Of a DNA stretch of 64,000 nt, positions 3,587-29,430 are shown one piece after another. The position numbers and the translations under genes were made by a program. Each line of letters starts with the position of its first letter. Positions within the stretch are counted from its first letter, which is position 1. Below the pieces are notes generated by a model. The model saw nothing but the letters and a program-made list of their open reading frames with translations. It was not told the origin of the DNA and did no database searches. Source of the DNA: Nitrospirota bacterium (GTDB lineage Bacteria; Nitrospirota; UBA9217); NCBI GenBank assembly GCA_963749655.1, contig CAVVOB010000022.1, positions 32,001-96,000 of the forward strand. Reading direction: 5' to 3'.

Positions 3587-3615
3587 TTGACAAGAAACAG
3601 GTGAAATGCTAGAGT
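3587..3615 (+). promoter_or_regulatory. sigma70 promoter for the riboswitch-led operon
   Basis: TTGACA-17bp-TAGAGT with an extended -10 TG. Confidence 0.7.
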
Positions 3616-3649: not shown

Positions 3650-3783
3650 CTTTGCTCAGAGCAAACTCCGGGAAACCGGAGGACGCAGAGCCACGAAGCT
3701 ACGTAAGACAACCCGGACTTCCCGGAAACCACACTGCCGGCGCAAAGTCTTTGTCGTTTTATACGCTAGTCGAGCCGCCAAAG
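3650..3783 (+). ncRNA. GEMM-I (c-di-GMP-I family) riboswitch aptamer, A20 variant (putative 3',3'-cGAMP sensor)
   Basis: P1 CTTTG/CAAAG; GAGCAAAC; P2 CTCCGG-GAAA-CCGGAG with GNRA loop; GACGCAGAGCCACG junction; 3' TAGTCGAGCCGCC; A at 3660 in the G20 position. Confidence 0.8.
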
Positions 3784-3822
3784 AACCGGCAGTGATCTGT
3801 TGACTTTGGCGGCATTTTTTTT
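3774..3822 (+). terminator. Riboswitch expression-platform terminator
   Basis: GCCGCCAAAG/CTTTGGCGGC 10 bp stem plus A(T)8; overlaps the 3' strand of P1. Confidence 0.85.
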
Positions 3823-3885: not shown

Positions 3886-4344
3886 ATGACCTACTCGAAA
3901 AATATTCTGCTTCCCGTTCTGGCGCTTCTGGCGCTCGCGCTGGGCGCCTGTTCGCCGAAGATATACGGAACGGTCCAGCTCGTCGATGCGAACATGCAGC
4001 CGATCCCCCCTGCCGCGGATAATCCCCAGGGCACGGTGGTGAATATGATCAACACGAGCGTCGCGATCGAGAAAGCCTCCCAGTCCGTGTCGGTGAATGC
4101 CGAAGGCAAATACGAGTCCCTGAAGGATCAGGTGACGCCGGGTATCTACAAAGTGGAGGCGAGCAGGATCGGATACCTCACCGAGACCCTTTCCGTCGAG
4201 GTCACACGATTCGGCGGGAAAAAGGCGGACTTCAAGCTCAAGAAGATCCAGGAAGGGAAACGTAAGAGCATTGAAGGGTCCACCACCGATGAGAACAAGA
4301 TCGTGAACCCCGGCGAAGTCAACATCCAGCCGCCGACGATGTAG
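3886..4344 (+). CDS. Lipoprotein with carboxypeptidase-regulatory-like (Ig-like) domain
   Basis: AGGAGG RBS, lipobox LGAC, PGIYKVEASRIGY motif. Confidence 0.8.
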   Translation: MTYSKNILLPVLALLALALGACSPKIYGTVQLVDANMQPIPPAADNPQGTVVNMINTSVAIEKASQSVSVNAEGKYESLKDQVTPGIYKVEASRIGYLTETLSVEVTRFGGKKADFKLKKIQEGKRKSIEGSTTDENKIVNPGEVNIQPPTM

Positions 4345-4450
4345 GCCTTTTCAAGGCATCGCCCGGAATCCGCAAGAACCCGGTTCGTTCTTGCGGGGAA
4401 ACGGTTCCATGCAATACTATGGTTGCGTTTAACGACCAGGAGGCAGAGAT

Positions 4451-7026
4451 ATGATGAAGCGCATGATCCAGACGGCCCTGTTACTTTCGGCATCAATGCT
4501 TCTGTTCGCCTGTGGAGGCGAGAAATTCGAGCTCAAGGTCAAAGCGAATATGAACGGACAGCCTGCGGCCCTGGCAAAGGTTTCCGTGGACGGCCAGGAG
4601 CTGGGGCTCACCGATAACAACGGCGACTTTTCAAAGAATCTTGAAAGAAAGGCCGGTACCGAAGTCGCGATCACCGTGGCCAAGGAGCAGCCGGGCCATC
4701 ATACGAATCCCTGGAAAGGTTCCTTTGTCGTGAAGGCCTCGCGCAACGCTGCCGAGGTGTATTCCTTTACGGCGGATCTTTCCTCGGCCCCCTTTGTGAC
4801 GATCAAGGCTACCTCGAAAAACGAGCCTCTTTCCGATGCCGTAGTCAAGGTCGGGGGAAGGAAGCGGGCCGGACCAACGAGAAGGGCGAACTCCTTTACG
4901 AATACAAAGAAGCACCCGCCAAGGGCTTTGACATCTCCGTGAGCAAGGCCGGTTACGGAACATGGCACAAGACCGCAGCCGTCGAGCCCGGGCAGCAGAT
5001 CGAGGCGGCACTCAACAGACGGGTGACCGTGACGATCAATGCCCTTTCGGATGAATACGGAGAGCAGCGCGGCGTTCCGGGAATCAGTGTGAGCATCAAC
5101 CACACGACGGTCGGCAAGACGGATGCCAAGGGCACATTCGCCTGGACGTCCGACAAGGACCTGGGCAAAAAAGTTCCCATCGCGCTGTCCGCCTCCGGTT
5201 ACCTGCCGGAGAGCTGGCAGGGTTCGATCACCCTGGACGGCGAGGTCAGGGTCCAGCGCTATTTTTATCCCGTCACACCCCGGCCCATCAGGACCGGCAT
5301 CTACCGGTTTGCCGGCAATACGCCCAACGTGGATCTGAGGGACGTCCTTACGCAGACCGAGGATGCGATCGCGGCGCAGCTTTTCAAGAATGTCTGCTTC
5401 AGCAAAGTTCCGTCCCAGACCCTTCAGAGCGATATGAAACGCGCGAAGGTGAGCATCGAAAAGGTCACCACCAAGGGGTGGCGGACGACACCGCTCAAAA
5501 AGACGGTGGACATGATCGTCGTCGGAAGCGTGGCCAAGGACGACAAGGGCTATCTGATCGAAGCGAAGTTTTATGCGCCGGGCGGGACCCAGATCATCAG
5601 CCAGATCGCCCGGGCCAAGAGCGCTTCGGACATTGACGGCGCGGCGAAGGAAATCGTGAACGCGGTGATAGAGCGCTTTCCCTTCGAAGGGACGGTGGTC
5701 GGGACCGAGGAGGAGCGCTATCGCATCAATCTCGGCAAGTCCGGACTACCGGATTATCGAGGGGCACCGACTTCCAGGTCATGACGCCGCGCATGGATGA
5801 TGCCGGCAAGATCACGGCATATCGGGAAGCCGGCAAATTGCGGGTCAGGAAAGCGGAGGACAGCGGCTCCTGGACCGAAGTGGAGGAACTGAAAAAGGAC
5901 GAGAAGATCTCCATCGGAGACCGTGTCGTGCGTCGTGTCTACCGGGAAGGAGAGGAAGAAGGCGCCCGCAACTATTTCATTCTGTCCAGCAAAAGGCGGC
6001 ATTGCCTCCCGATGTGACTCCGCTGTCCGGCGTGAACATCTATGTGAACAACGAGTGGCTCGGCTCGACCGGCCCCGACGGCAAGGCGGAGGTCCCGGCG
6101 CGGATCAACAAGAGCGTCACCCTGCTCCTTGTACCGGCACGGATACCAGCAGGTGACCGAGAAGATCACGATCGAGAAGAACAAGGAAACGAAGGAGTTC
6201 GTCCTGGCAGTGAACAACGCAGTGTTCAGGGTCGATTCGCGTCCGCAGGGGGCTGAAGTTTTCGTGGACGACGAGCAGATCGGCAAGACCCCGCTCCTGG
6301 CCGGCAAGGCCGTGCCCCTGGGATTCCACACGATCAAAGTCACCATCGGCGGGGACTACCGCGACTGGGAAGAGGTCGTGGAGTTCGCCAAGAAAGAAGA
6401 AGACCGCACCGGTGAACGGTCGATCGTCCTTCCGAAGGACTGTCTGAAGATCGGCGAGCGCGCAGAGCAGAAGGGCGACGTCGACGGCGCGATCGCAGCG
6501 TACCAGAGCACCGAGAAGGGGCACCCCGATTATTCCGTGGCCCATCACCGGCTGGCGCAGCTGTATCTGGACGACAAGGCCGACTTTGACGGGGCCATCC
6601 GCGAGTTCGAGAACGTGCTGTCCCTCCCCGAGAACCAGCAGCTGGTGTACAAGCAGTTCTCCGTGGCCTTTATGAACCTCGGCCATGCCTATTACGAGAA
6701 GGGCAGCGCGCTCGTGCAGAAGGACACGCGAGGCGGCGGCGCAGAACTTCGGCAAGGCGATCCAGAACCTTCAGATTGCGAAGCAGAACACGCGGTTCTT
6801 CCCGAACGACCGTTATGACGAGGCGGTGCACGATACGTACTACTACACCGCACTCTCGTATCATAAGCTCTACCAGTTGACCAAAAAAGGCAATATCCTG
6901 AACAGCGCCAACCAGGCGTGGCGGGATTACTTCGACTTCTTCCCGAAAAAGCTCGAGGGGAACAGCACCTTTGAGCAGAGCCGGGAAGCGGCGCAGAAAT
7001 ACTGGGACCAGATCAAGAACCTGTAG
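4451..7026 (+). CDS. Large multidomain lipoprotein (Ig-like repeats, CsgG/TolB_N-like, FlgT_C-like, PEGA, TPR), split by several frameshifts
   Basis: Lipobox LFAC; repeated GxTD/xTxxxG beta motifs; PEGA motif VDSRPQGAEVFVDDEQIGKTP; TPR-like helices; overlapping ORF fragments from 4451 to 7026. Confidence 0.7.
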
Positions 7027-7047
7027 CGCCTGTCGGAGGACGGTATT

Positions 7048-8344
7048 GTGATAGTCGGGAAGGGACGTTCCATACTGGCATGCGCCGCGATCGTCGTTAC
7101 GCTGCAATCTTCAGCAACGGCGGGCGAGGTCCTGTCGGGGCCTGCGGGGACAACCGATTGCCAGTGCAGCGCGGGCGGGACAGTCAACGGGAGCGCCGGT
7201 TTCGGCGCCGTCCGCCACCCTGCAGAGCGTTATGAGCAGCGCCACGGGAACGTGCCCGTGCCCGGAAGAAAAAAAGCCCGCGCCGCTCGAGCCGCTGTCC
7301 CTTCGTCCCCTGGTCCCCATCGAAGCCGGCCGTAACGACTCGAATCCGGTCGTGGTCTCCCCGCGGCACCTTCATCGCCTTTGAGCGGAGCGTCGGGGAT
7401 ACGAAGGAGATCCGCATCGCACTGCCGGACGGCACGCCGGTTCAGACCATTTACTTCCTGCTGTCCGGCGGGCAGCAGGGACATGAAGTTCTTTTTCCCC
7501 GGGGTATCCGAGGAAACCAGCTATAACGCGGGCATCACCTGGTCGCCCGACGAGTACCGGTTCGTGTTCATGAGCAACGGCGGCGAGGGCAACTATGACC
7601 TGTATCTGCAGGACCTCGGCGCGGCAGCGCCGAAGCGGCTGACGGACCATAAGGAAAAGGACGGCCAGGCGCACTGGTCGCCGTTCCGGGGACCGCATCG
7701 TCTTCGTGTCGGGCAGGTCGGGCAACGGCGATGTGTACAGTCATGGACCTCGCGACGCGCGCCCTCACGCGCCTGACGCGGGGAGGCAAGGCATAGCTCT
7801 ATCCCCGGTGGTCGCCGGACGGCGAAGAAGATGGCCGTGATGCACGGCAGCAACGAGAACCATGATATCGTTCTGATCAATGACGCGGCCAGGCCGGCGG
7901 AGTCGCAGAGAGCGCTTACGACGTGGACCTCGGACGATCTGAGGCCTGTCTGGTCGCCGGACGGAAGGAAGATCGCCTTTTATTCCAATTATAATGCCGC
8001 AGGTGATCCCCGGGCCTGGTCGCTTGCGGTGATTGCCGCAGACGGTTCGGATCCCGCGGAGGGAGACGGGCTTGCCGCATGCGTCGTGGCGACGGACATC
8101 ATCCCCGATGTGGAGGCGGGTCCTGCGTGGATGCCCGACAGCAACCGGATCGTTTTCGTCAAGAACGACCGGCAGGAGTACAATCCGCTCTATGTTGCCG
8201 ATGTCGGTCCGGAAGACGGCCATTCCGATCAGGACGGACACGAAGATGAACCACGATGTCGCCGGTTCGGCCGACGGGACGATCGCGTTCCGCGCCCAGG
8301 TCAATCAGTGGGACCAGATCTATATCATGAAGCTGAAGGAGTGA
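7048..8344 (+). CDS. TolB-like beta-propeller (PD40 repeats) protein, frameshifted
   Basis: Repeated WSPRG/WSPDE/PRWSPDG/PVWSPDGRKIAF/PAWMPDS motifs across frames; signal-peptide-like N-terminus. Confidence 0.8.
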
Positions 8345-8349
8345 TTTAA

Positions 8350-8379
8350 GTGCGGAATGCGGAATGCGGAATGCGGATT
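8350..8379 (+). repeat. (GCGGAAT)n heptamer array
   Basis: gtgcggaatgcggaatgcggaatgcggatt. Confidence 0.9.
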
Positions 8380-9880
8380 GGGAAAATCGTTATCACGGGC
8401 ATTGTTGTCGGTTTCAGCGTCTGTTCATCATGCCCTGACGACGGGGACCGGCTTCCTGCTGCCGGATGATCGCCGTTGCCAAGGCGATGAAGCTCTATGA
8501 AAAGCGGCATTACGACGAAGCTGCCGGCGTGCTTCGCTCCGGCGCCGTCGATCCGTCCCGGCAGGGCGCGGCGAACCTTGCGCTCGGCATGGTCTATTTC
8601 AAGAATGCGGTGCTGCACCGCGAACTGTACCGGACCTCGGAACTGGTGTTCCAGGACTATCTGAAAAAGCTGTCCGCTGCCCAGGGCAGGGACCGGAGCC
8701 GCTTCGTCGATCTGTACTTCGGCGAGACCCTGCTCGAAGCGGGCAAGCCCGACGTGGCCGCGATCTATCTCGAAAAGTTCGCCAACACGGCGGGAATCGA
8801 TCAGAAATACCAGGCGATCGCGAACGTCAGTCTCGGCCTCAGCTACTACCGGAGCAAGGAAAGCCAGAAGGCCGCGGACCTGTGGGCGGCCATCGATGCC
8901 ACGGACCCCGAGGTGAAGGCCGAGCTGGCGGCGGCCTACAGCAAGGCGGGCATCACGGACAAGAACGCCGAGGCGCTCATCGACGAGGCCCTGGGTGCAG
9001 CGAAAAAATCGGGCAAGCCGGTCACGGTACGGATGGTGAAGAACATGCTGGCCGTCTATGTCCGGGCCGGACAGACCGAGAAAGGCCTGGACCTGCTCAA
9101 GCGCGCGGACCTGAAGGCGTTTTCGTACCGGGAGACGCTGGGAAAGTCCAAGGTCATCAATTTCTACGACTTGTCCCTGCTGGGCGACATGGCCGACATC
9201 TACGGACGAGCGGCAATAACGTACCTCGATAAGGCCGCAGCGGACGGGAAGACGAAGAGCATCGCCGAATTCTATCTCGCTCAGGCCCAGGCGCTGTTCG
9301 GCTCCCTCGATCAGTCCTCGAAGGTCGCCGCTTCGTTCATGGCGACAGCGCAGCTGCCGCAGCAGTACAAGGACCTTATGCAGGTGTGGCAGACCGCCAA
9401 CGTATACCAGCGAAGCCGCAAGGCAGAGGCAACCGCCCTCTGGAATGAGTTTTCCCAGAAGCAGGCCGCGGATCCGGACGTGCTCGCCGAGATTTTGTTC
9501 ACCTGCGGCAGGCTGAAGATCGATTGTCCGAAGGTCGTTCAAAAGGCCTCGATTGCGGCCGAAGCCGGGGAAGGGAAAAAGTTCGCGAACCTGAACATCG
9601 CCGTCGGAACCTACTATCTCGGCCGTCTGGACACTGCAAGGGCGTCGCCTACCTGGAGGCCGGCCGCGACAAGGGCAACAAGAACAAGATCGAGTCGAAT
9701 GATCCGGTGATGCTCGTGAGCCTTGCCGATGCCTACTTCCGGACCAAGAAATTTTCCGAAGCCCTTGAGATCTATTTCGAGATGAGCAAACAGTTCCCCG
9801 AGGTGCGCCAGATCCAGGACGCCCTGCAGGGGGTCTATGCCATGGAGCACAAAAGCGCGGGAGACGTGAAGATCAATTAA
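8371..9880 (+). CDS. Secreted TPR-repeat protein, frameshifted
   Basis: Signal-like MRIGKIVITGIVV; helical TPR-like ORFs 8466-9710 and 9524-9880. Confidence 0.7.
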
Positions 9881-9886
9881 GGTAAT

Positions 9887-10038
9887 CCGCGCCTTGGCAT
9901 CCCCCGGCTCCTGCGGGGGTGGAAAGCGCTCACTCGCGCGTGACACAAACGTGTCACGCTCCGCGAGTGAGCAGTTCCGGGAGGTCGCGTCAGTTTTAGT
10001 CCCGACAGATCGGGATGCCGGAGGGGGCTCCACTGCGG
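9887..10038. repeat. REP-like palindromic element, copy 1
   Basis: Shares 5' and 3' segments with 23851-24044; internal hairpin GCGTGACAC/GTGTCACGC. Confidence 0.85.
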
Positions 10039-10223
10039 AATTCAGAATGTGGAATGAGAAGGAAAATATCCATGGTGTGCGAGCCGGGAGTGAAACGGCA
10101 TGCCGGACTGCGCAACGGAAGAAGACGATTTGATTCGATCGAAATAAAAAGTACAGCGGTGTCGGAGACAAAAAGTGCGACCTTGGTCTTTATTCCGCAT
10201 TCCGCATTCCGAATTCCGAAATT
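10035..10223. repeat. Inverted pair of GCGGAAT-type arrays enclosing ~130 bp
   Basis: gcggaattcagaatgtggaatg ... attccgcattccgcattccgaattccgaaatt. Confidence 0.75.
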
Positions 10224-10239
10224 CGTTGAGGAGGACACT

Positions 10240-11856
10240 ATGAAACGGACACTGGTGATGCTGCTGCTGATCGCGCCTTCATTACGGCGGGGGCCGATGC
10301 CTGGGCGGGCCGCAAGAACGACAACCGGCCCGACGGCGGGACCCTCAGCTACGGCGAGTACGGCCGGCCGGCGACGCTCGACCCGATCACGAGCAACGAG
10401 ATGATCTCGCTGCGGCTCACGGAGCTGATCTTCAACGGGCTCGTGGGCATCAACGAGAAGCAGGAGATCGTGCCCGAGCTGGCGGAGAAGTGGGAGACGC
10501 TCCCGGACCGGCGCACCTACACGTTCTTCCTCTGCGCAAGGACGTGACCTGGCACCCGAACGAAGGCGAGGAAGCCAAACCGTTCACGGCCGATGATGTG
10601 GTCTTCACCTACAACATCATGATGCACCCCAAGACCATCACGCCGCTCAAGGTGCGGTACGAGTTCATCGCCGCGTCGAGAAGATCGATGACTAGACGGT
10701 GAAATTCACGCTCAAGCGGCCGATCCTGAACGCGCTGGCCAAGTTCAGCTTCAAGATCATCCCGAAGCACGGCCCGGCCAACTCCGCTGTACCTCACGCG
10801 GGACGATCCCTTTGTCCAGAACCCCATCGGCACCGGCCCCTATATGCTGAAGAACGTTACCGCCGAGCGCGAGATCGTGCTGGTGGCGAACGAAAATTAT
10901 TTCAAGGGCAGGCCGCATATCGACAAGTTGGTGGCCAAACCCTTTGCGGACCAGAACATCATGACGCAGGCGCTCATGTTCAACGCCATCGACATGATCG
11001 TGCTGGTGAACCCGCGCGACATTCCCGAGATCCAGGGCGACAAGCGCTTCATCCTGCAGCCCTACAACGCGCTGTCGTACTCGTTCTTCGGCTACAACTC
11101 TGCGGAACCCGCTGCTTGCGGACAAGCGCGTGCGCAAGGCCTTCACCTATGCCGTGAACCGGCAGGAGATGCTCGACTCCTTCTTCAACGGACAGGGCAC
11201 CATCATCTCCGGGCCCTTTTGCGCCCGGGAGCTGGGCCTACAACCTCGATGTGCAGCCCCTTGCCTTTGATCCCGAAAAGGCGAAGGCGCTGCTGCAGGA
11301 GGCGGGCTTCACCCGCGGCGCGGACGGCATCATGCAGAAGGACGGCAAGAGGCTGTCGCTGACCCTCAAGGTGCCGATCGAGAAGGAGAGCGAGGCGGTG
11401 AAGCGCGTGGTGCTCGCGTTCAAGAACTATCTCAAGAACGTCGGCGTCGACGTCAAGGTGGAGTTCAAGGAGTGGCAGGCCTGGAAGGAAGACGTGTTCC
11501 TGGAGCACGATTTCGACATCGTTTTCGCCTCCTGGGTGTTCGACGATTCGGCGGACATCTCGTCGCTGTTCCATTCCGCCGAGATCGGAGCATGGAAAAA
11601 CAATTTCGGCGGCTATTCGAATCCCGAGGTGGACGGTCTGATCAACGAAAGCAAGCTCACGCTGGACCATGAGAAGCGGCGGACCATCAACCGCAAGCTG
11701 CACGCGATCCTGGCCGACGAGAACCCCTATACGTTCCTCTGGACGCTCACGAACTACGCGGGATACCACAAGAAGGTCCGGCACGTGGCGATCCATCCCT
11801 ACAAGTTCTTCTCCTATGCCGATGACTGGTTCATGGAAGGGAAAGACCAGAAGTAA
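10240..11856 (+). CDS. ABC transporter substrate-binding protein, family 5 (OppA/DppA-like); frameshifted with one in-frame TAG
   Basis: GAGGAGG RBS; TLDP, PELAEKW, FTADDVVFT, PIGTGPY, YSNPEVD motifs. Confidence 0.85.
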
Positions 11857-11861
11857 CCTTC

Positions 11862-11893
11862 AATGCGGATTGCGGAATGCGGAATGCGGAATG
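11862..11893 (+). repeat. (GCGGAAT)n heptamer array
   Basis: aatgcggattgcggaatgcggaatgcggaatg immediately after the SBP stop. Confidence 0.9.
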
Positions 11894-11914
11894 TAAAAAA
11901 AGGCTGAGTGGCTC

Positions 11915-12883
11915 ATGAAGCTCTCAGCCATCCGGCCCATAGCCCTGGTGCTGTCCAGGGAGCTGGCGATCACCGGGCTCCTGCTCCTCGGCGTGAGCTT
12001 CGTGGTCTTCACCATCCTCTACGTTTCGCCCGGCGATCCCTTCAGCGTGCTGCTGGAAGGACAGCTTGTCCACGGCAGATGCACGGAGCGGCGTGCGCGA
12101 AGCCCTGGGCGTTCCGACGTCCTGGTATGGCCAGTATCTCTCCTGGCTTGCCGGCATGCTGCAGGGGAATTTCGGCACCTCGATCCGCACCGGCTTGCCG
12201 GTCCTGGGCGAGGTCTTCCGCGTCGGACTCAACACGCTCATCCTTACCCTCGGATCGATGCTGGTCACGCTCCTGATCGCCGTGCCGATCGCCCTGTATT
12301 CCGCGGTGCGCGGCGTCAACGCAGTGATCCTGGCCGCTCACCATGTTCGCCTACGTGGTCTCGGCGCTTCCGGTCTTCTGGCTCGGCTATATCGTCATCT
12401 ATTTCTTCACGCATAAACTCGGGCTTTTCCCGCTTGCCTTCGGCTTCTCGGGCAGCGATCAGAAGTACGCGCTGGCTCTACGAGCTCCTGCCGATCTTGG
12501 TGCTCGGCGTGGGCAACGGCACCATCAGCGAAGTGATCCGCTACCTGCGCGAGGAAATGGGCAGGGTCATGGCCGAGGATTACATCCGCACGGCACGGGC
12601 CAAGGGAGCCTCGGTCTGGAAGCACTCGTTCAAGGAAGGGCTCCTTATTCCGGTGACCGAGATCATCGCTGCCAAGATCCCCTTCATCCTCGGCGGGGCC
12701 GTCATCGTCGAGCAGGTGTTCAACTGGCCGGGCATGGGCAGGATGGCCTGGCAGGCGGCGCAGGACCGCGACTATCCCGTGATCATGGGCATCGCGATCC
12801 TGGCCGCCGTGTTCGTGCGCATGGGAAGCCTGTTCCAGAGCATCGTGTACGTGGCGGTGAATCCGAGGGCGTCGAAGGAATAA
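11915..12883 (+). CDS. Peptide ABC transporter permease (OppB/DppB-like), frameshifted
   Basis: PGDP, GNFGTS, EDYIRTARAKG, GAVIVEQVFNWPGMG, RDYPVI motifs. Confidence 0.9.
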   Translation: MKLSAIRPIALVLSRELAITGLLLLGVSFVVFTILYVSPGDPFSVLLEGQLVHGRCTERRARSPGRSDVLVWPVSLLACRHAAGEFRHLDPHRLAGPGRGLPRRTQHAHPYPRIDAGHAPDRRADRPVFRGARRQRSDPGRSPCSPTWSRRFRSSGSAISSSISSRINSGFSRLPSASRAAIRSTRWLYELLPILVLGVGNGTISEVIRYLREEMGRVMAEDYIRTARAKGASVWKHSFKEGLLIPVTEIIAAKIPFILGGAVIVEQVFNWPGMGRMAWQAAQDRDYPVIMGIAILAAVFVRMGSLFQSIVYVAVNPRASKE

Positions 12884-12887
12884 CTTG

Positions 12888-12924
12888 ATTTCGGAATGCG
12901 GATTGCGGAATGCGGAATTAAAAA
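12888..12924 (+). repeat. GCGGAAT array containing the left 19 bp direct repeat (12906-12924)
   Basis: cggaatgcggaattaaaag is also present at 14039-14057. Confidence 0.85.
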
Positions 12925-13019
12925 GATGCAATGACAGAAGCCGGGGCTGGTTCCGGCCAGCAGTCGGCAATTCTTAAGGCTCGGTTGATCTGTGGGATTG
13001 GAACAGCTAAAGAAGACAC

Positions 13020-13978
13020 ATGGAAAAGGTCTGGGTAGTACAGGATCCTGATGAGGAGCGCACGCAGGTTCGGAAGACGAAGCTCCTCAAGAATGAAGAG
13101 CCCAAACCCGAAAAGAGTCCCGCTGTTGCCTACTCGCTTTCGATGGTCTGCTGGGGTGCAGGGCAGCTGTTCAATCGTCGGCAAACCAAGGGCGCGGCGT
13201 TCATGGTTCTGATGTTCCTCGCGGGGTCCGGAGCGTATCTTGTACACTTTTACCTGCAGGACCTGATTTCGTTTGCAGCCGGCCGTGGAATATCCGGGGC
13301 AAGCCTGTTCCTGTTCGCGGAAGCTACGTTCATGGGCATTCTGCTTTTTGGGGCCTATAATGCCGGCGATGCATATCACTGCACCAGAAGGGGACGGACA
13401 AATCCTTTCCCCGGGGTATCGAGCCGCGTGTATCCCGTTCTCTGTTCTCTGCTCGTCCCGGGATGGGGGCAGTTTATGAACGGCCAAGCAGTCAAGGGAA
13501 GCATCTTCACGGGATTTTCGGTCATCAGTTTCTTTTCGCTGGCAACGCTTCCCGCGGTCTTTCTGGCCTGGCCGGTCCTTGAGCCTTCCGGCGCCCGGTT
13601 CATCGTGGAAGCGCTTTTTACAGGGTCGGTTCTGTTTGCCCCCCTTATTCCGCTTATCTGGTTATTCGGCGCCTATGATGCGCTTCAGGTAAGCCTCGAC
13701 GACTACAGAAAGGAACCGCTCTGGGAACGGATCAAGGCGGCCAACAACCGCCGGCGTGTGCAGGGGTGGGTGCGCGGAGTTTTCCCGCAGATAAAAGCGA
13801 CCGTTGCGCTCGGCTTGTTCCTGCTGCTGTTCGCCATCATTGCGTATCGATATTTTCCGGCTGGCTATTACGACGACGTATTCCTTTCGGTCCAGTCGCT
13901 TCTGAAGAAACGGGAATGACCTTGGTGCCGGAGCTCATCGACAGGCTGCACGTCTTGATGACGACAGTGGGGAAGTGA
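13020..13978 (+). CDS. Hypothetical multi-pass membrane protein with an internal duplication; probable frameshift near 13915
   Basis: Two copies of an S-x-x-x-(W/P)-G-x-G-Q-x-x-N motif followed by TM helices. Confidence 0.7.
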
Positions 13979-14057
13979 TGCAATTGCGGAATTCCTGCGC
14001 ACTCCGTGCATCCGCACTCGTAAACGCTGGGGACAGGTCGGAATGCGGAATTAAAAG
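13979..14057 (+). repeat. GCGGAAT array interrupted by a CCTG...CAGG module; contains the right 19 bp direct repeat
   Basis: cgtgcatccgcactcgtaaacgc at 14005-14027 is identical to 23953-23975. Confidence 0.8.
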
Positions 14058-14107
14058 CAGTCCACCGCGAAGGTGCACAAAGGACGTACGCCGCTTCATT
14101 AAACGAT

Positions 14108-15001
14108 ATGAAGACTTATACGCAAATATCCGGTGAGATCGGCGAGTTTTCAGACCTGCCGTTCTGGAAAAAGGCCGATGCAATCGATCTTGCCTATGTT
14201 GCCTACGGCCTGCTGATAGCGACGCTCGTGGTGGTGTCCTACATCCTCGGGTCCTTCCACCTGTTGAGCCATGATCCCCAGGATATCGACCTCGAGCTCA
14301 TGCTGGCCCCTCCGGGGACGGCGGGGCACCTTCTCGGCACGGACTATATGGGAAGGGACATGCTCTCGCGCCTCATCATGGGCATCCAGGCATATTTTCT
14401 GCCGGGGCTCCTCGCCATCACCATTTCGCTTCTCGTGGGGACGGTGCTCGGTGTGCTGGCCGGATACCGGGGAGGCGCCTACGACAGGATTATCACCTAC
14501 TTTAATAATCTGGTGGACTCCTTTCCCCGCCTCGTCCTGATCCTGCTGGTGGTTGCGGCATTCAAGCCCGACATCTATTACATCATGCTCGTCGTGGGCG
14601 TCACGAACGTGCCTGTCGTGGCGTCGCTCATCAGGGGCAAGATCCTGTTCCTCAAGCAGAAGAACTTCATCGAGGCTGATATCGCGCTGGGAGTGCCCAC
14701 CGGTACGATCATCCTGAAGCACATCCTGTGGCACAATTGCCGCTCCCTTCTCATCATCCAGGCGACCCTCGGCATGGCGGAGGCGATCCTGATGGAAACC
14801 TCGCTCAGCTATCTCGGGTTCGGCGTGCAGGAGCCGGCGCCTTCGTGGGGCAACATGGTCCAGTCCGGGTCCAATTACTTCATGCGGGGCACCTTCTGGC
14901 CTTCCACGGCGCCTGCGCTTGCGATCCTCTTCACCATCCTCGGGTTTCACCTGCTCGGCGACGGACTGAACAACATTCTCGAAGGCAAGAGGAGCACATG
15001 A
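14108..15001 (+). CDS. Peptide ABC transporter permease (OppC/DppC-like)
   Basis: HLLGTDYMGRD, ETSLSYLGFG, PSWGNM, LLGDGL motifs. Confidence 0.92.
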   Translation: MKTYTQISGEIGEFSDLPFWKKADAIDLAYVAYGLLIATLVVVSYILGSFHLLSHDPQDIDLELMLAPPGTAGHLLGTDYMGRDMLSRLIMGIQAYFLPGLLAITISLLVGTVLGVLAGYRGGAYDRIITYFNNLVDSFPRLVLILLVVAAFKPDIYYIMLVVGVTNVPVVASLIRGKILFLKQKNFIEADIALGVPTGTIILKHILWHNCRSLLIIQATLGMAEAILMETSLSYLGFGVQEPAPSWGNMVQSGSNYFMRGTFWPSTAPALAILFTILGFHLLGDGLNNILEGKRST

Positions 15002-16098
15002 CCGCGGCGCCGCTTCTGAAGATCGAGAACCTCCGCACCTACTTCCATTCGCGCAGCAAGCGGGCCTTTATCCGCTCCGTGGACGGCGTGAGCCTCGATG
15101 TGGCCCGCGGCGAAACCCTCGGCATCGTGGGCGAGAGCGGAAGCGGCAAGAGCATCACGGCGCTGTCGACAGTCGGCCTCGTGAGCGCCGGACCGGGCGT
15201 CATCAGCGGAAGGATCGAGTTCACGCTGGGCGATGCCACCCGCGATCTGCTTCAGGGCCTGGAAGATTACGTCACGCTCACGAAGAACGACGGAAGGATC
15301 ATGACGGTGCGCAAGGATGTTGCCGGCTGGATGCGGAACACCGAGCGGATTATGGACGGCGTGCGCGGCAGGCAGATCGCCATGATCTTCCAAAACCCCA
15401 AGTCATCGCTCAATCCCTTCACCACCGTGGGCAAACAGATAACGGAAGCGGTCAGGCTCCACACGTCCGTCCGCAGCGAGGCAGAAGCGCGGGAACGTGC
15501 CATTGCCTGGCTCGACCGGGTCAAGATCGACTCACCGCGTCTCCGGTACAACAACCATCCCTACGGACTGTCGGGCGGCATGTGCCAGCGCGCCATGATC
15601 GCCATGGCGCTGGCCTGCGAGCCCGCGCTGCTCATTGCCGACGAACCCACGACAGGTCTTGACGCCACGATCCAGACGAAGATCGTCGATCTCCTTGCCG
15701 AGCTCAAGTCCGAGCTCGGCACCACGACCATGCTGATCAGCCATGATATCGGCATCATCTCGCGCCTCGCCGACCGTGTTGCCGTCATGTACGGCGGGAC
15801 GGTCGTGGAGTACGGCAGCGCCCCGGACATCCTGTCTCCCGGTGAGGGCACGAAGCATCCCTATACGGCCGCGCTCATGGCGTCGGTCCCGAGCAGGCGG
15901 AACGTGCGGGAGAAGGGCTATCTTCAGGCCATTGAGGGCGATGTGCTCGACACCATCAACATCCCGGCGGGGTGCAGGTTCTACGGCCGGTGCAGCCGCG
16001 TGACCGATGCCATCCGGGAAAAATGTGAACACTGCGAGCCGGACCTGAGGGAAATTGCGGCGGGTCATAAGGTACGGTGCTGGCTGTATTTTGATTAA
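14998..16098 (+). CDS. Peptide ABC transporter ATPase (OppD/DppD-like)
   Basis: GESGSGKS, LSGGMCQR, IADEPTT, C-terminal GCRF..RC..C..C; GGAG RBS; ATGA overlap with the permease. Confidence 0.93.
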   Translation: MTAAPLLKIENLRTYFHSRSKRAFIRSVDGVSLDVARGETLGIVGESGSGKSITALSTVGLVSAGPGVISGRIEFTLGDATRDLLQGLEDYVTLTKNDGRIMTVRKDVAGWMRNTERIMDGVRGRQIAMIFQNPKSSLNPFTTVGKQITEAVRLHTSVRSEAEARERAIAWLDRVKIDSPRLRYNNHPYGLSGGMCQRAMIAMALACEPALLIADEPTTGLDATIQTKIVDLLAELKSELGTTTMLISHDIGIISRLADRVAVMYGGTVVEYGSAPDILSPGEGTKHPYTAALMASVPSRRNVREKGYLQAIEGDVLDTINIPAGCRFYGRCSRVTDAIREKCEHCEPDLREIAAGHKVRCWLYFD

Positions 16099-16128
16099 TT
16101 TGAAAAGAAATGTTAACGTAAGGTTGTT

Positions 16129-17142
16129 ATGCCCAAGACGATCCTCGAAGTCATAGATCTCAAGAAGCATTTCGCCCCCCCCAGAGGGATTTTTTCTTCC
16201 TTCCGTACGGGACGGGCCGTGCCCGCGGTGGACGGAGTGAGCTTCTATCTCAAAGAGCATGAGACCGTCGGCCTCGTCGGCGAATCGGGATGCGGGAAGA
16301 CCACCATCGGCAGGACCATCCTGCGGCTCGAAAAACCCACGTCAGGAAGCATCATTTTCGACGGCAGGGACATTACAACGGTCCCGACAGCGGAGCTGCG
16401 CCAGCTCCGCGGCCAGATGCAGATGATCTTCCAGGACCTGGACGCGGCGCTCAATCCGAAGATGCGCATCCGGGACATCCTGAAGGAAGCCATTACGGTA
16501 CACCATCAGGTAAGCGGCGAAGAGGCGGACAAACGCATCGGCGACCTGCTTGAACAGGTGAACCTGAAAAAGAGCAAGCTTCAGAATTTTCCCCATGAGC
16601 TGTCAGGCGGCGAGAAACGCAGGGTCGGCGTGGCGCGCGTTCTGTCCGTCGGCGCCCGGTTCATCGTGGCCGACGAGCCCACGAGCGCGCTCGACGTGTC
16701 CATCCAGGCGCAGGTCGTGAACCTGCTGCGGGATCTCCAGGAGAAGCTCGGCCTTTCCTATCTGTTCATTTCCCATGATCTGCGGGTCGTGGAACTGGTC
16801 AGCCACAAAGTGGCGGTCATGTATCTGGGCAAGATCGTGGAAATGGGTCTTGCCGACAGGATCGCCCATGCCGCCCTTCACCCGTACACCCATATCCTCT
16901 GGTCGTCGCTCGTGGAGAAGCGGAGCATGGAGCTGGCCCGCACGGCGAAAAGCGTCCACGCGGGAAGTTGGGGCGTGTTCGACTTCGAACGTCCGCCCGT
17001 AGGATGCCGCTTCGCCCCGCGCTGTCCTGTATATGAATCCAAGAACAGGCCCGCAATCTGCACTGATCCCCAATCCGAACCACAGCTGACGGATGTCGGA
17101 AACGGCCACCGGGTGGCTTGCCATTTTCCGATCGGCTCCTGA
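16129..17142 (+). CDS. Peptide ABC transporter ATPase (OppF/DppF-like)
   Basis: GESGCGKT, LSGGEKRR, VADEPTSALD, GCRFAPRCP motifs. Confidence 0.93.
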   Translation: MPKTILEVIDLKKHFAPPRGIFSSFRTGRAVPAVDGVSFYLKEHETVGLVGESGCGKTTIGRTILRLEKPTSGSIIFDGRDITTVPTAELRQLRGQMQMIFQDLDAALNPKMRIRDILKEAITVHHQVSGEEADKRIGDLLEQVNLKKSKLQNFPHELSGGEKRRVGVARVLSVGARFIVADEPTSALDVSIQAQVVNLLRDLQEKLGLSYLFISHDLRVVELVSHKVAVMYLGKIVEMGLADRIAHAALHPYTHILWSSLVEKRSMELARTAKSVHAGSWGVFDFERPPVGCRFAPRCPVYESKNRPAICTDPQSEPQLTDVGNGHRVACHFPIGS

Positions 17143-17299: not shown

Positions 17300-17629
17300 A
17301 TGAAAAAAATTCTTTACATAGTTATGGCAATGGCCTTTGCCCTTCCTGTGGGACTGGCCTTGGCTGATGAAAATATGCCGAAGGGCCCCGAAAAAGGCCT
17401 GTACACACCGAACGGCATCACCTATATGGACAGAGAAGGAGCCGCCTGCTCCCATGCAAGCGATATGAGCGTGGAAGGTTCGGCTGCAGGCGGGCTAAGC
17501 TCGGGCGCAGTTGTCGAGGTGGGCAACGGAATCACTGCTTTTGAACTGGGCAAGGCCGTATGCGCCAGCGGACCGGCAGAACGAGAATCGGGCAAGAAAA
17601 TCGAGAACGGCATTACTTATTTTGACTGA
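17300..17629 (+). CDS. Small secreted hypothetical protein with three NGIT(Y/A)(M/F) repeats
   Basis: Signal peptide MKKILYIV...ALA; GAGG RBS; upstream TTGACA. Confidence 0.75.
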   Translation: MKKILYIVMAMAFALPVGLALADENMPKGPEKGLYTPNGITYMDREGAACSHASDMSVEGSAAGGLSSGAVVEVGNGITAFELGKAVCASGPAERESGKKIENGITYFD

Positions 17630-17747
17630 GGGCTGATCCGGGCGGGACCTTTTGCACATGCGGGCGACGCCATCGATACCAAGCAGGCTGAAATCAGCCT
17701 GCTTGTTTTTTGTTTTAAGGAGTGACGGCGGAGCAAAATGCGTGCTC

Positions 17748-18383: not shown

Positions 18384-18739
18384 CGCGGTACTCTTCTGAG
18401 AAAGGTTGGCGCCGGAAGCCCCTGTAATGAAACCGCCTGCAAAAAATAGTGAAAACTTCGGCCTCCGTCGGAAGCTGCCGGATCAAGTTCCCCGGCTCCC
18501 TGTTGTATCGTCAGAGTTCTTCCCGGCCATATGAGATATAGTTTACTTCGAGTCTCGGCTGAATTCAAGGTAGGGAGAACAGTAATGAAGAAGGCACGCA
18601 GCACCCGTGAACGGCAGACAAAAAGCATCCTCTGTGCTATAGTTTATGAACGCTCCATATTTTTCTTCAATACCGTCCGTGGGCCAGGTGCGGCCAAGGC
18701 CGTATATAAACGGCCCCGCGGAACTTGTCTGAGGTGTAC

Positions 18740-19805
18740 GTGAAAGACGACAGGAGCACTGCGTCGGGCATCGGGGAATCAATCCTGCGGGAGCAGGTGC
18801 GCCTTGCCGTCGACCAGCTGCCGACGATGCAGATTGCCTCCTTTCTCGTGGCGGTTGTTCTGTCCTTTGTTGTTCGCGAGTTCGTTCCGGACGAGAACAT
18901 TGCCATATGGCTTTCCCTGGTTGCGCTTGTCGCTGTCAGCAGGATCATATTTTATTACCGGTTTGTCGGAGTGAGCAAGGGGCCTTTCGACGGCAGGTTA
19001 TGGAGAAAGGCATACCTCCTCCTGGCGCTGGCTTCGGGCGTCATCTGGGGTCTTTCGGCTTTTCTCATTTTTCCCGTTCAGAATATTGCTTTCATCTCTT
19101 TGTTCGTCCTCGTCATTGCCAGTTTGTCGGCAGCCACAACCATATCCCATTCGTCACTGCGGCTCGGTCCCGCAGCATGGGCTTTCCCGGCCATGCTGCT
19201 CTATGCCACGCGCTGTTTCATCGAACGCGGAGCGGCGGAATATACCATAGGGCTGCTTATCGTGCTGTATCTCATCGCGACCGTGATCCATTCATTCAAG
19301 CACAACAAGCTCATTACCTCCGCTATCTCCCTGAAGTTCGAGAACATTGAACGAGAGTCTGGACCGCGAGTGGCGTCGAGCGGCGCGAGAGGGCAAGTCG
19401 ATTTCCCTGGTCATGGTGGACATCGATCATTTCAAGGCATTCAATGATACCTACGGCCATCAGGCAGGAGACGAATGTCTCAAAAAGGTGGCTCTTGAAA
19501 TAGCCCGCTCCGCCAAACGTCCGGCCGATCTGGCTGCCAGGTACGGCGGCGAGGAGTTCATAATACTGCTCCCCGACACCGATATCCAAGGCGCGACCGA
19601 GATCGCGGAAAAGCTGCGCATTGCGATCGAAGTCCTCGGCACGCCCCATGCTCATTCCTCCGCCGCAAGTGTCGTGACCGTCAGCGTGGGAGCAACCGCT
19701 CTCGTCCCCGAGCAGGGAACGGAACCGACCCGGCTCGTCAGGCTGGTGGATAAGGGGTTATATGCCGCCAAACATGACGGACGCAACCGAGTGAGAGCGC
19801 TCTGA
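18740..19805 (+). pseudogene. Membrane-bound diguanylate cyclase (GGEEF) with apparent internal deletion and frameshift
   Basis: Multi-TM N-terminus; DIDHFKAFNDTYGHQAGD and RPADLAARYGGEEF present; DxLT/NRR region absent at the ~19347 junction. Confidence 0.7.
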
Positions 19806-28055: not shown

Positions 28056-29430
28056 CATTGCTGTCCAAGATAATCTGATTTCCTGAAGCTCACCCCTACC
28101 AATCAAGGCTTTTAGACAGGTAATTCCATCATCTCGGATTCAGGTTCTTTGTTCTGCTGTCCAATTACCGATAGCTCATTACCAGTTGTTCTGCCGACGG
28201 TACAATCGGCGGTGTTTCAAACGGATTATCCAGCCATGTCCATAAATCTCGATACGTGAACAGGTTATACCGGAGCATGGCAACCAAATTCGACAACGAC
28301 CAGCCGAGTGTGGAACGGAACTTCAAGTACTTCAACACCAGGATTGCGATTAATGCTGTCCAAATCTGGGTCAGCAAAGCATTCCGGCTCGTTCCCACAA
28401 ACGTCTTGATCTTCAGATTCTGCTTGATCGTCTTGAAAAATATCTCAATCTGCCAACGGTCTTTATATATGCTCGCGATGGTCGTAGCGCCAAAAGTGAG
28501 ATGATTTGTCCACAGAACAATCACCCGCTCATTGTCTGCGTCCCATACTTCTACCCGCCGCAGGATATATGGGCATTTCCTGATTGAGTAATGGCCTGTC
28601 AGCTCAATGAGCTGGTCTTTAATGATGTTTCTGTTGTCGGGTACCGCTCTCTTTTCGATCACCTTGAAAGCGGCGTTATCCTTCTCTCTCGTTACAAAAA
28701 AAATTCCGGCCTCGGTCCATCGGGCAAACTGCTCATAGTCCACATAACCCCGATCAATTGCCAGGATGGAGCCTTTGGGGAACGTGAGCGTATGCGCGAT
28801 GTTCACTTCATGCACATTCCCCTCGGTCATACTGCAGAAGACCGGAAGATAGCCGTCGTGGTCCAACAGCAGGTGAAGCTTGATAGCTCCTTTTTTCTGC
28901 CGATACTTTGCCCAGTCAAACAAAGTGATGCAAAGTTCTATCAGCGTGGCATCGAGGCTGAACAGCTTGTTCTTGAACCGAAACGGCTTCTTGCCGTGTG
29001 CCAGAACCCGGCACTTGGCCAGGAGCTGATAAAAGACCTTCTGGTACAGCTGCCACGGCCGATGCTCGTTGGCATAGGCCAGTGTGGAACGTTTGGGCGC
29101 TACATCTATCCCGAGGTGCTTAAGCTTGCCTAGGCATGTCGCCAATCCGCCGCAAATCTCCCGCAGCGAGTGTGCTTGTCCCAACTGACAGAACACCATT
29201 GCAACGAACTGACCCCAGCAACTGAACCCTTTTACGCCTCTTTCTGCCCGTGTTTCCCGCACCGCTCTCACAAAATCCTGCTGCGAAAATATATCTAGAA
29301 TCTGTCCGAAAATGCTGTTAAACTTGTTCACGGGGATGTCCTCCTTCGGATATTTTGGTCTTCGACAAACCTACTTTATCCGATTGAGGCTTCCCCTGCA
29401 ATTACTCAAATCCTATCTTGGACGGGTCTG
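28056..29430 (-). mobile_element. IS4-family insertion sequence (1375 bp)
   Basis: Terminal inverted repeats CATTGCTGTCCAAGATA / CAGACCCGTCCAAGATA; 9 bp TSD ACCAAACAG at 28047-28055 and 29431-29439. Confidence 0.9.
28165..29331 (-). CDS. IS4-family transposase (DUF4372 + DDE)
   Basis: LDAT, DRGY, YKDRWQIEIFFK (YREK) motifs; SLREIC N-terminal region. Confidence 0.93.
   Translation of the reverse strand: MNKFNSIFGQILDIFSQQDFVRAVRETRAERGVKGFSCWGQFVAMVFCQLGQAHSLREICGGLATCLGKLKHLGIDVAPKRSTLAYANEHRPWQLYQKVFYQLLAKCRVLAHGKKPFRFKNKLFSLDATLIELCITLFDWAKYRQKKGAIKLHLLLDHDGYLPVFCSMTEGNVHEVNIAHTLTFPKGSILAIDRGYVDYEQFARWTEAGIFFVTREKDNAAFKVIEKRAVPDNRNIIKDQLIELTGHYSIRKCPYILRRVEVWDADNERVIVLWTNHLTFGATTIASIYKDRWQIEIFFKTIKQNLKIKTFVGTSRNALLTQIWTALIAILVLKYLKFRSTLGWSLSNLVAMLRYNLFTYRDLWTWLDNPFETPPIVPSAEQLVMSYR

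Follow-up and report, generated by a model that had tools for sequence, protein, structure and literature searches.

The window analyzed here, a stretch of 64,000 nucleotides from a Nitrospirota bacterium (contig CAVVOB010000022.1) whose positions serve for all coordinates below, carries a cluster of ten co-directional genes, g1 to g10 (3886-17142), nine of which (g1-g6 and g8-g10) were shown to be inherited as one unit across phyla. Four of the nine, g1-g4, encode predicted envelope proteins, here called the scaffold, and the other five (g5, g6, g8, g9, and g10) encode a predicted ATP-binding cassette (ABC) importer, here called the transporter. Opp-type importers are textbook stand-alone systems. 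Judging from the sequences, what we rate as new is the tie of a peptide-type ABC importer to an envelope scaffold that is obligate and undescribed, and we propose tentatively, with somewhat less than even confidence, that the nine genes form a single operon building a dedicated periplasmic peptide-capture and import system. An earlier reading made from the letters of the window (the sequence-only reading) held that the cluster could not be assigned to a named system, and this still stands: no curated family, solved structure, or paper was found to match the set, and no description of the cluster was found in the literature, subscription journals being mostly outside the reach of the search.

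Nine genes inherited as one unit

A profile scan of genome_contigs with a 21-member g4 alignment yielded 63 loci related to the window copy, all of them derived from metagenome-assembled genomes. They are labeled as Nitrospirota, Thermodesulfobacteriota or "delta proteobacterium," Geobacteraceae, Burkholderiales/Betaproteobacteria, Gallionellaceae, Nitrosomonadales, Acidiferrobacterales, and other Gammaproteobacteria; the carriers, which belong to several phyla, are soil and sediment bacteria that have not been cultured and are represented by such genomes alone. Gene presence was scored at each locus by tblastn with the gene pieces of the window and then counted, a position being expected only where it fell inside the fetched DNA (460 positions). 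The nine genes, as far as present in each locus, were colinear in 63/63 loci, and 458 of the 460 expected positions were found; the two misses, g10 in L025 and g8 in L030, both lie beyond insertions or a contig end. The complete nine-gene set was found in 37 of the 63 loci, the remainder being cut by contig ends. The sequence-only reading had made its case depend on scaffold and ABC genes occurring together in other genomes, and together they do occur, across genomes and phyla, in a sample that is anchored on g4 and cannot show whether this clade of solute-binding proteins (SBPs) ever occurs without the scaffold.

The flanks are otherwise not conserved, the largest flank family (a GGDEF protein) being present in 10 loci. 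Several genes are only 3-16 nt apart in the Betaproteobacteria-type loci, where the g3-g4 spacers measure 3-4 nt and the g6-g8 spacers 8-16 nt (rows without over-extended calls of open reading frames, ORFs). Scaffold and transporter diverged together, because the pairwise identities of g2 and g5 are correlated with r = 0.92 (630 pairs, 36 loci). The arrangement of the nine genes is more than chance.

Mean identity between the Nitrospirota-type and the Betaproteobacteria-type clusters is 78% for the SBP g5 (39% invariant columns), 72% for g8, 70% for g10, 67% for g6, and 65% for g9, followed by 56% for g3, 55% for g2, 54% for g1, and 42% for g4. The SBP is thus the most conserved of the nine proteins, above the ATPases (65-70%). 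It is unusual for an SBP to be more conserved than its own ATPases, and this excess of identity suggests constraints on the protein beyond ligand binding. Because the identities across phyla are so high, they indicate horizontal spread of the whole unit between phyla; a plasmid collection searched with g2 gave no match. In the tree, Pseudomonadota fall into two separate clades and one Geobacteraceae copy stands apart (L016 and L029 are scored "none" for the riboswitch described below, although their contigs do not include the upstream region).

The scaffold proteins and the importer

g1 (3886-4344) encodes a 152-residue lipoprotein that matches CarboxypepD_reg-type models only and would fold as a transthyretin-like β-sandwich. 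The lipobox is present in 38/41 sequences, with Ser or Ala at position +2. The C-terminal tail, DKI(V/I)NPGEVNIQ(P/A)P.M, is near-invariant in 26/26 aligned sequences from all clades. A search for g1 fusions gave four records. In P0276 (635 residues) the tail runs into a Pro-rich linker, an OmpA-like peptidoglycan-binding domain (PF00691), and a DUF900 hydrolase, while P0275 and P0277 have g1 joined to g2, at different points. The idea that g1 is a copy of a g2 domain was rejected, hhalign having matched the signal-peptide region only (36% probability).

g2 (4451-7026; about 5 frame changes in the window copy) encodes a ~855-residue lipoprotein. Its domains follow in the order Ig-like/CarboxypepD_reg, a CsgG-N/LpoB/TolB_N-like module, a second CarboxypepD_reg-like domain, PEGA, and TPR; a FlgT_C-like part in the central module is possible. 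PEGA and TPR matches were found in 42/42 g2 proteins, CarboxypepD_reg in 40, and a weak DUF4198 match in 27/42. The lipobox is present in 41/43 sequences, and position +2 is Gly, Ala, Ser, Thr, or Gln, but never Asp. Lipoproteins without Asp at +2 go to the outer membrane, a rule that is not universal. For comparison with NCBIfam cut-offs we used the intact orthologues of locus L035: its g2 gave TPR-repeat hits only, and its g1 and g4 gave no NCBIfam hit. Among solved structures, g2 as a whole had generic TPR hits only and its center none at E ≤ 10.

The center of g2 was also searched as a profile. Residues 266-503 of the L035 protein, run against 1.84 billion representatives, gave 316 hits at E ≤ 0.001. 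A Pfam scan covered 18 of the 150 listed hits, and six of these 18, all shorter lipoproteins, carry CsgG at the matched region, N-terminal half of the model only, alongside FlgO, LpoB, or TolB_N, with FlgT_C just under the cut-off; two of the six (P0247 and P0272) fuse the module to a β-propeller. Aligned with these relatives by hhalign, the g2 center reached 99.1% probability (E 5e-19, 214 columns), and Protein Atlas gave a sub-threshold CsgG plus PEGA lead (0.88). CsgG and the flagellar H-ring/disk proteins form rings, and LpoB docks on envelope enzymes. The g2 center may be likened to the CsgG/FlgO/FlgT/LpoB class, but it differs from it in several respects. At E ≤ 1, the 25 families listed for the 42 g2 proteins include no member of this class, the relatives match only about positions 5-103 of the 210 of the CsgG model, so that a membrane pore is not implied, and there are no curli or flagellar genes nearby.

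g3 (7048-8349; frame changes in the window copy) encodes a secreted PD40 β-propeller; a Sec signal peptide is present, and the Nitrospirota proteins also have a Pro/Ala-rich linker of variable form. PD40 was found in 35/35 g3 proteins, and the best solved relatives are TolB propellers (8.6e-27). g4 (8466-9880; one frame change near 9600-9700) encodes a secreted, ~495-residue TPR-like solenoid, also with a Sec signal peptide, whose likeness is to TPR proteins in general only; its Protein Atlas matches are generic TPR clusters, no solved structure matched at E ≤ 0.1, and no fused forms were found. The g4 family is large: of 8000 candidates scored, 352 clusters reached E ≤ 0.001, and typical members have about 496 residues.

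These four proteins are reminiscent of Tol-Pal/CpoB: g3 is a TolB-type PD40 propeller, a TolB_N/LpoB/CsgG-N-like module is encoded by the neighboring gene g2, lipoproteins are present, and a gene for a TPR protein lies downstream of the propeller gene. The differences are nevertheless substantial. TolQ, TolR, and TolA are absent from the nine genes and were not seen as a conserved flank family. g3 is without TolB_N (0/35 at E ≤ 1), and the L035 protein scores 133.3 bits on the TolB model against a cut-off of 343.15, over profile positions 237-400 only. g1 is transthyretin-like and not OmpA-like as Pal is, PF00691 being found in the single fused variant P0276. Lastly, the inner-membrane partner encoded here is an ABC importer.

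The part list of that importer is complete for the Opp/Dpp/Nik type. g5 (10240-11856; frame changes) encodes a periplasmic family-5 SBP (SBP_bac_5) with a Sec signal peptide and no lipobox; g6 (11915-12883; 3 frame changes) and g8 (14108-15001) encode an OppB/NikB-like and an OppC/DppC-like permease, respectively, both BPD_transp_1; and g9 (14998-16098) and g10 (16129-17142) encode an OppD-like and an OppF/DppF-like ATPase, each ABC_tran with a C-terminal oligo_HPY. At the level of sequence, g5, g6, g8, g9, and g10 are thereby shown to make up a complete Opp/Dpp/Nik-family ABC importer. The solved SBPs closest to g5 are AppA of Bacillus subtilis (1xoc, 3e-66) and DppA of Escherichia coli (5e-50), with NikA and MppA far behind (MppA 5.7e-27). 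An Asp aligned to D408 of DppA is invariant in 47/47 g5 proteins, and R355 of DppA aligns with Val; we take D408 and R355 to hold the amino and the carboxyl end of the peptide, respectively.

The transporter thus shares its parts with the Opp, App, and Dpp importers, and AppA and DppA are its closest solved SBPs. It differs from them in that it is linked to four envelope proteins in all loci found, that its SBP is the most conserved of the set, and that no equivalog cut-off is reached; the best NCBIfam scores were 220 against 650 for the SBP (Opp4A), 222 against 350 for g8 (Opp4C), 270 against 541 for g9, and 285 against 408 for g10. A further difference is a stretch of ~40 extra residues in g9, between Walker A and the Q-loop region (FQNP), which is moderately conserved in 44 orthologues and which we presume to be an insertion relative to OppD. 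g9 also has a four-Cys C-terminal motif.

Leader, spacers, and the link to cyclic dinucleotides

The sequence-only reading described one co-directional run behind a promoter and a riboswitch, and all of these elements were found, on the + strand, at or close to where it had placed them; the cluster genes and the leader and repeat features described below are likewise all on the + strand. Its gene list also held for every protein and domain named, but it had missed g7 (13020-13919), which lies between the permease genes. The leader begins with a sigma-70-like promoter (3587-3615; TTGACA, 17 nt, TAGAGT; 10/12 matches plus an extended -10 TG). This is followed by a GEMM-I aptamer (RF01051, the cyclic di-GMP (c-di-GMP)-I class; 3650-3782), which scores 52.9 bits on the full model, 1-87 (E 1.7e-7; the gathering score is 35), and is the only Rfam match in the 64 kb, and by an intrinsic terminator (3774-3822, hairpin 3774-3813 plus U8; -27.4 kcal/mol, z -3.75, 0/200 shuffles as stable). 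A CAGGAGG ribosome-binding site stands ahead of g1, and the ten genes follow. The 5' arm of the terminator, GCCGCCAAAG, doubles as the 3' end of the aptamer; because this stretch is common to both, aptamer and terminator would exclude each other, and we infer an ON switch.

Upstream sequence is available for 44 loci, and 19 of these have the aptamer ahead of g1, as the window does: 18 of the 19 Nitrospirota-labeled loci and one of Geobacteraceae. Among the 20 riboswitch-bearing sequences, 18 have a TTGACA-17/18-TAnnnT site that precedes the aptamer by 24-44 nt, and the terminator arm CTTTGGCGG with a T-run is present in 18 by the strict pattern, the other two having the one-base variant ACTTGGCGG with a T-run. 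When the RNAalifold consensus of these same 20 sequences was taken as the structure, 96.7% of the helix cells were paired, vs. 26-41% when the partners were slid, 5 pairs were changed on both sides, and the covariation score was reached by 0/500 shuffles. The loci were searched for the riboswitch with blastn and with a covariance model made from these same copies, by which divergent ones could be missed; Rfam at the gathering threshold gave no hit to any riboswitch class in 7 of the 25 riboswitch-negative loci. L018 is an example of switch loss within Nitrospirota: only the 3' arm GTCGAGCCGCCAAAG and a degraded terminator are left upstream of g1 (5280-5345 of that locus), and neither the covariance model nor Rfam gave an aptamer there.

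All 20 aptamers have A at Rfam model position 11 (consensus G), which we take to be G20 in the Vc2 numbering. According to PMC6140456, G20 is replaced by A in the GEMM-Ib riboswitches that bind cyclic GMP-AMP (cGAMP), and some natural A20 members bind both cGAMP and c-di-GMP. Ten GGDEF ORFs lie upstream of the cluster across the loci, and all of them have Asp at the base-specificity position, GH.(A/T)GD. Hypr cGAMP synthases have Ser at this position, and a Hypr (cGAMP-type) GGDEF beside the cluster was rejected, all neighboring GGDEF proteins having Asp. Nine of the ten ORFs are directly adjacent, as Rec-GGDEF in four Nitrospirota loci and as Rec-GAF-GGDEF in five Betaproteobacteria-type loci (two were identified with Pfam, the others by blastp clustering and motif). 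The window has a GGDEF gene of its own (18710-19802), 1.6 kb downstream of the operon, membrane-anchored and frame-split, with a canonical GGEEF and the same Asp. The ligand may be c-di-GMP and/or 3',3'-cGAMP; a purely cGAMP reading is opposed by the canonical GGDEF neighbors.

A link to cyclic dinucleotides thus appears in two lineages by different means, a riboswitch in one and an adjacent GGDEF gene in the other. The claim of second-messenger control made by the sequence-only reading is supported by the riboswitch-terminator leader in one lineage, but the control is not general (19/44 loci), and nine further loci instead have an adjacent response-regulator GGDEF gene. The closest precedent is the GEMM-I/GEMM-Ib regulon of Geobacter, which shares the aptamer family with A at the cGAMP-type G20 site and, in the accessible portion of PMC6456294, a transcription-terminator platform that fits an ON switch; an operon of lipoprotein transpeptidases is among the targets given there, in agreement with ON switches and envelope targets. 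The hosts here, however, are mostly Nitrospirota, the GGDEF genes near the cluster have the canonical Asp and not the Ser of Hypr, and an operon of scaffold and peptide importer was not found as a target in that portion of PMC6456294.

The spacers of the operon are filled with heptamer repeats. A tandem array of (GCGGAAT)n directly follows the g3 stop codon (8348-8385), further tandem arrays follow the stop codons of g5 (11862-11893) and g6 (12887-12918), a short array lies upstream of g8 (14039-14059), and inverted arrays at 10036-10056 and 10190-10225 pair with each other into a long hairpin immediately ahead of the ribosome-binding site of g5. GCGGAAT dimers with ≤2 mismatches match 17 times in the 64 kb, and 15 of these matches fall in operon gaps (0.99 expected by chance), as do all four strict period-7 arrays of the window. 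Related heptamers (GCGGATT, GCGGAGT, CGCAGAG, and others) fill the same gaps in the Nitrospirota and Thermodesulfobacteriota loci (43 arrays in 377 kb of cluster vs. 14 in the 210 kb of flanking DNA) and are nearly absent from Pseudomonadota-type loci (2 arrays). No Rfam family was hit at the arrays when 8300-14150 was scanned permissively. In Beggiatoaceae and cyanobacteria, heptamer repeats between genes have been described and a role in translation has been proposed for them (PMC4679880). The g4-g5 spacer of the window folds with -75.9 kcal/mol (z -2.62), and 12 of the 44 spacers folded have hairpins with z ≤ -2.9 (100 mononucleotide shuffles each; L001, L002, L005, L006, L010, L014, L015, L016, L017, L025, L030, and L032). 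This hairpin may act in processing or in transcript stability and so determine the ratio between the scaffold and transporter halves.

g7 encodes an intact 299-residue membrane protein with a weak DUF5683 match. It was found only in the window and in L018 (14201-15160, 64% identical) and is not part of the conserved set. The gap between the permease genes is an insertion hot spot, which holds an M24 Xaa-Pro peptidase in L027 (14107-15324) and, in L025 (14279-20129), an island of 5.8 kb that carries PIN, TPR, and MauJ genes; in the window, the g7 insert is flanked by heptamer arrays. Downstream of it, the g9 ATG overlaps the g8 stop codon (ATGA). The transcript probably ends within 17300-17705, where a small secreted ORF (17300-17629) precedes the terminator at 17680-17705, the only strong one on the + strand. 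This ORF has three NGIT(Y/A)(M/F/F)(D/E/D)-like repeats; it matches no Pfam family, and none of the 63 loci has a counterpart.

As for the surroundings, a 10-nt repeat, TAATTCGTGT, makes up three arrays together with its complement at 372-543, and the window further has a DDE transposase (28168-29370) and an H+-pyrophosphatase (60344-62037, frame-split). Between 49825 and 57889 are genes for adenylate kinase, ATP sulfurylase, and three FAD/FeS oxidoreductases resembling a Qmo/Hdr set; these genes suggest a sulfate-reducing host. In L035, an adenylate kinase gene lies directly downstream of the operon.

Proposed function and its alternatives

In the peptide-capture and import system that we propose, g1 and g2 would anchor the scaffold to the inner face of the outer membrane, as the +2 rule predicts, and the central module of g2 would be of the type that forms periplasmic rings or docks on envelope partners. 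g3 and g4 would join them, the g2 center and g3 resembling a split TolB, with g1 in the position of Pal and g4 in that of CpoB, and the invariant g1 tail may act as a docking motif. At the cell wall or outer membrane, this scaffold would capture a defined peptide, or release it, and pass it on to the constrained SBP, and ATP-driven import through the Opp-type transporter would follow. Rising c-di-GMP and/or 3',3'-cGAMP would hold the aptamer closed and prevent the terminator from forming, so that the operon is on.

The cargo would most likely be an oligopeptide derived from peptidoglycan or the envelope. In E. coli, MppA-OppBCDF recycles murein peptide, and NlpI, LpoB, and CpoB are cell-wall scaffolds, their genes being unlinked. 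The combination of TPR/LpoB-like adaptors with import of wall-derived peptide is our working analogy for the cargo, and it is by this analogy that a wall- or envelope-derived peptide is favored. The analogy has its differences: MppA is distant from g5 as compared with AppA, no hydrolase is encoded in the cluster, and the parts are linked here. The M24 Xaa-Pro peptidase in the operon of L027 supports the peptide reading.

Several findings weigh against this proposal. No transporter component (L035) reaches the NCBIfam equivalog cut-off for Opp, Dpp, Nik, Gsi, Sap, Cnt, or Yej, and the best model for g6 is the nickel permease Opp2B (223.7 against 350), which allows a non-peptide cargo. g4, as the least conserved member, fits a rigid complex poorly, and the g1 fusions are single records, two of them without contig data. 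Riboswitch control is absent from 25/44 loci, and ~20 frame changes break the window copy, whose expression in this organism is not assured. Neither a protease nor a peptidoglycan hydrolase is encoded in the cluster, nor is an outer-membrane barrel or an anchor that would fix the scaffold to the inner membrane; the part list thus accounts neither for the peptide source nor for a trans-envelope link, and the "trans-envelope machine" of the sequence-only reading is not established but inferred.

It is possible that scaffold and transporter have two functions and share only a transcript, g1-g4 being a Tol-Pal/CpoB-like tether or ring that stabilizes the outer membrane in the attached or biofilm state and the Opp-type transporter serving nutritional peptide uptake, with no hand-over. 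The TolB-propeller-like g3, the TolB_N/LpoB/CsgG-N-like center of g2, the TPR protein g4 in the relative position of CpoB, and the one g1 variant fused to an OmpA-like domain would all agree with such a tether; moreover, no peptide-generating enzyme is encoded in the cluster, and the strong g4-g5 hairpin in 12/44 folded spacers could uncouple the expression of the two halves. We consider this somewhat unlikely in view of the strict colinearity in 63/63 loci over several phyla with otherwise unconserved flanks and of the correlated divergence of the halves. The SBP is also the most constrained protein of the set, which is unusual for a nutritional SBP, and there is no TolQRA-type motor in or beside the cluster.

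A bolder form of the hand-over proposal would make the system an ABC-importer-coupled, Tol-like assembly, in which a split TolB-like unit (the g2 center and g3), a Pal-like g1, and a CpoB-like g4 would dock on the SBP-dependent importer instead of the TolQRA motor and so link the state of the outer membrane and wall to the import of one peptide, the whole being horizontally spread and wired to cyclic-dinucleotide signaling by a riboswitch or an adjacent diguanylate cyclase gene. Taken in all its parts, we judge this to be rather unlikely.

The frame changes raise the question whether the cluster in this genome is a decaying pseudogene array that makes no working system. Judged against intact orthologues, the ~20 changes fall in g2, g3, g4, g5, and g6, with none in g1 or g7-g10, and only some of them are at homopolymers. 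Their spread is uneven (~20 across the 8.4 kb of 4451-12883, 0 across the 4.1 kb of 13020-17142), for which local coverage, a strain mixture, or real decay are possible reasons. Other genes of the window are split as well, for example the H+-pyrophosphatase and GGDEF genes given above, and because of this we read the changes as indel errors of the assembly. Each gene piece, moreover, still matches its orthologues over the full length at 55-90% identity, and promoter, riboswitch, and terminator are intact, which makes decay improbable.

The near-invariance of the g1 tail across phyla (26/26), which parallels the extreme conservation of the SBP, could also mean that the tail is itself the cargo: released by cleavage at the envelope, it would bind to the SBP and be taken up as a cue of cell density or surface contact, in the way of the Opp-imported pheromones of Gram-positive bacteria. 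An SBP of the oligopeptide type with AppA as its closest solved relative, and a cytoplasmic Xaa-Pro peptidase inserted in the operon of one locus, would suit such signaling. The set, however, encodes neither a processing protease nor a cytoplasmic receptor, and the tail is internal in P0276, where it runs into the linker and the OmpA-like domain, and deleted in P0277. A docking motif fits these variants better, and we regard self-peptide signaling as quite improbable.

Uptake of a metal or metallophore of the nickel/cobalt type, with the transthyretin-like lipoproteins as metal-handling partners of a Nik-like transporter, seems very improbable: Opp2B is the best g6 model, NikA-type models match the SBP at 1.9e-47 and 6.2e-47, the weak DUF4198 match recurs in g2 proteins (27/42), and the sulfate-reduction-type metabolism of the host would be rich in metalloenzymes, but all scores are far under the curated cut-offs, the SBP is nearer to AppA, DppA, and Opp4A than to NikA and keeps the Asp aligned to what we take to be the residue of DppA for the peptide amino terminus, and cyclic-dinucleotide control is not typical of metal uptake.

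If the proposed system of peptide capture and import is true, the transporter, in obligate and phylum-crossing partnership with the four scaffold proteins of the envelope, would show a new means by which an ABC importer is fed or gated. The PEGA/TPR/CsgG-like lipoproteins, a widespread family whose central module alone is represented by 316 clusters at E ≤ 0.001, would thereby gain a first function. With the leader described here, the GEMM-I A20 riboswitch class now includes Nitrospirota among its hosts and a new kind of operon among its targets. Because the carriers are uncultured, the system has been invisible to classical genetics; its operon is compact (about 12 kb).

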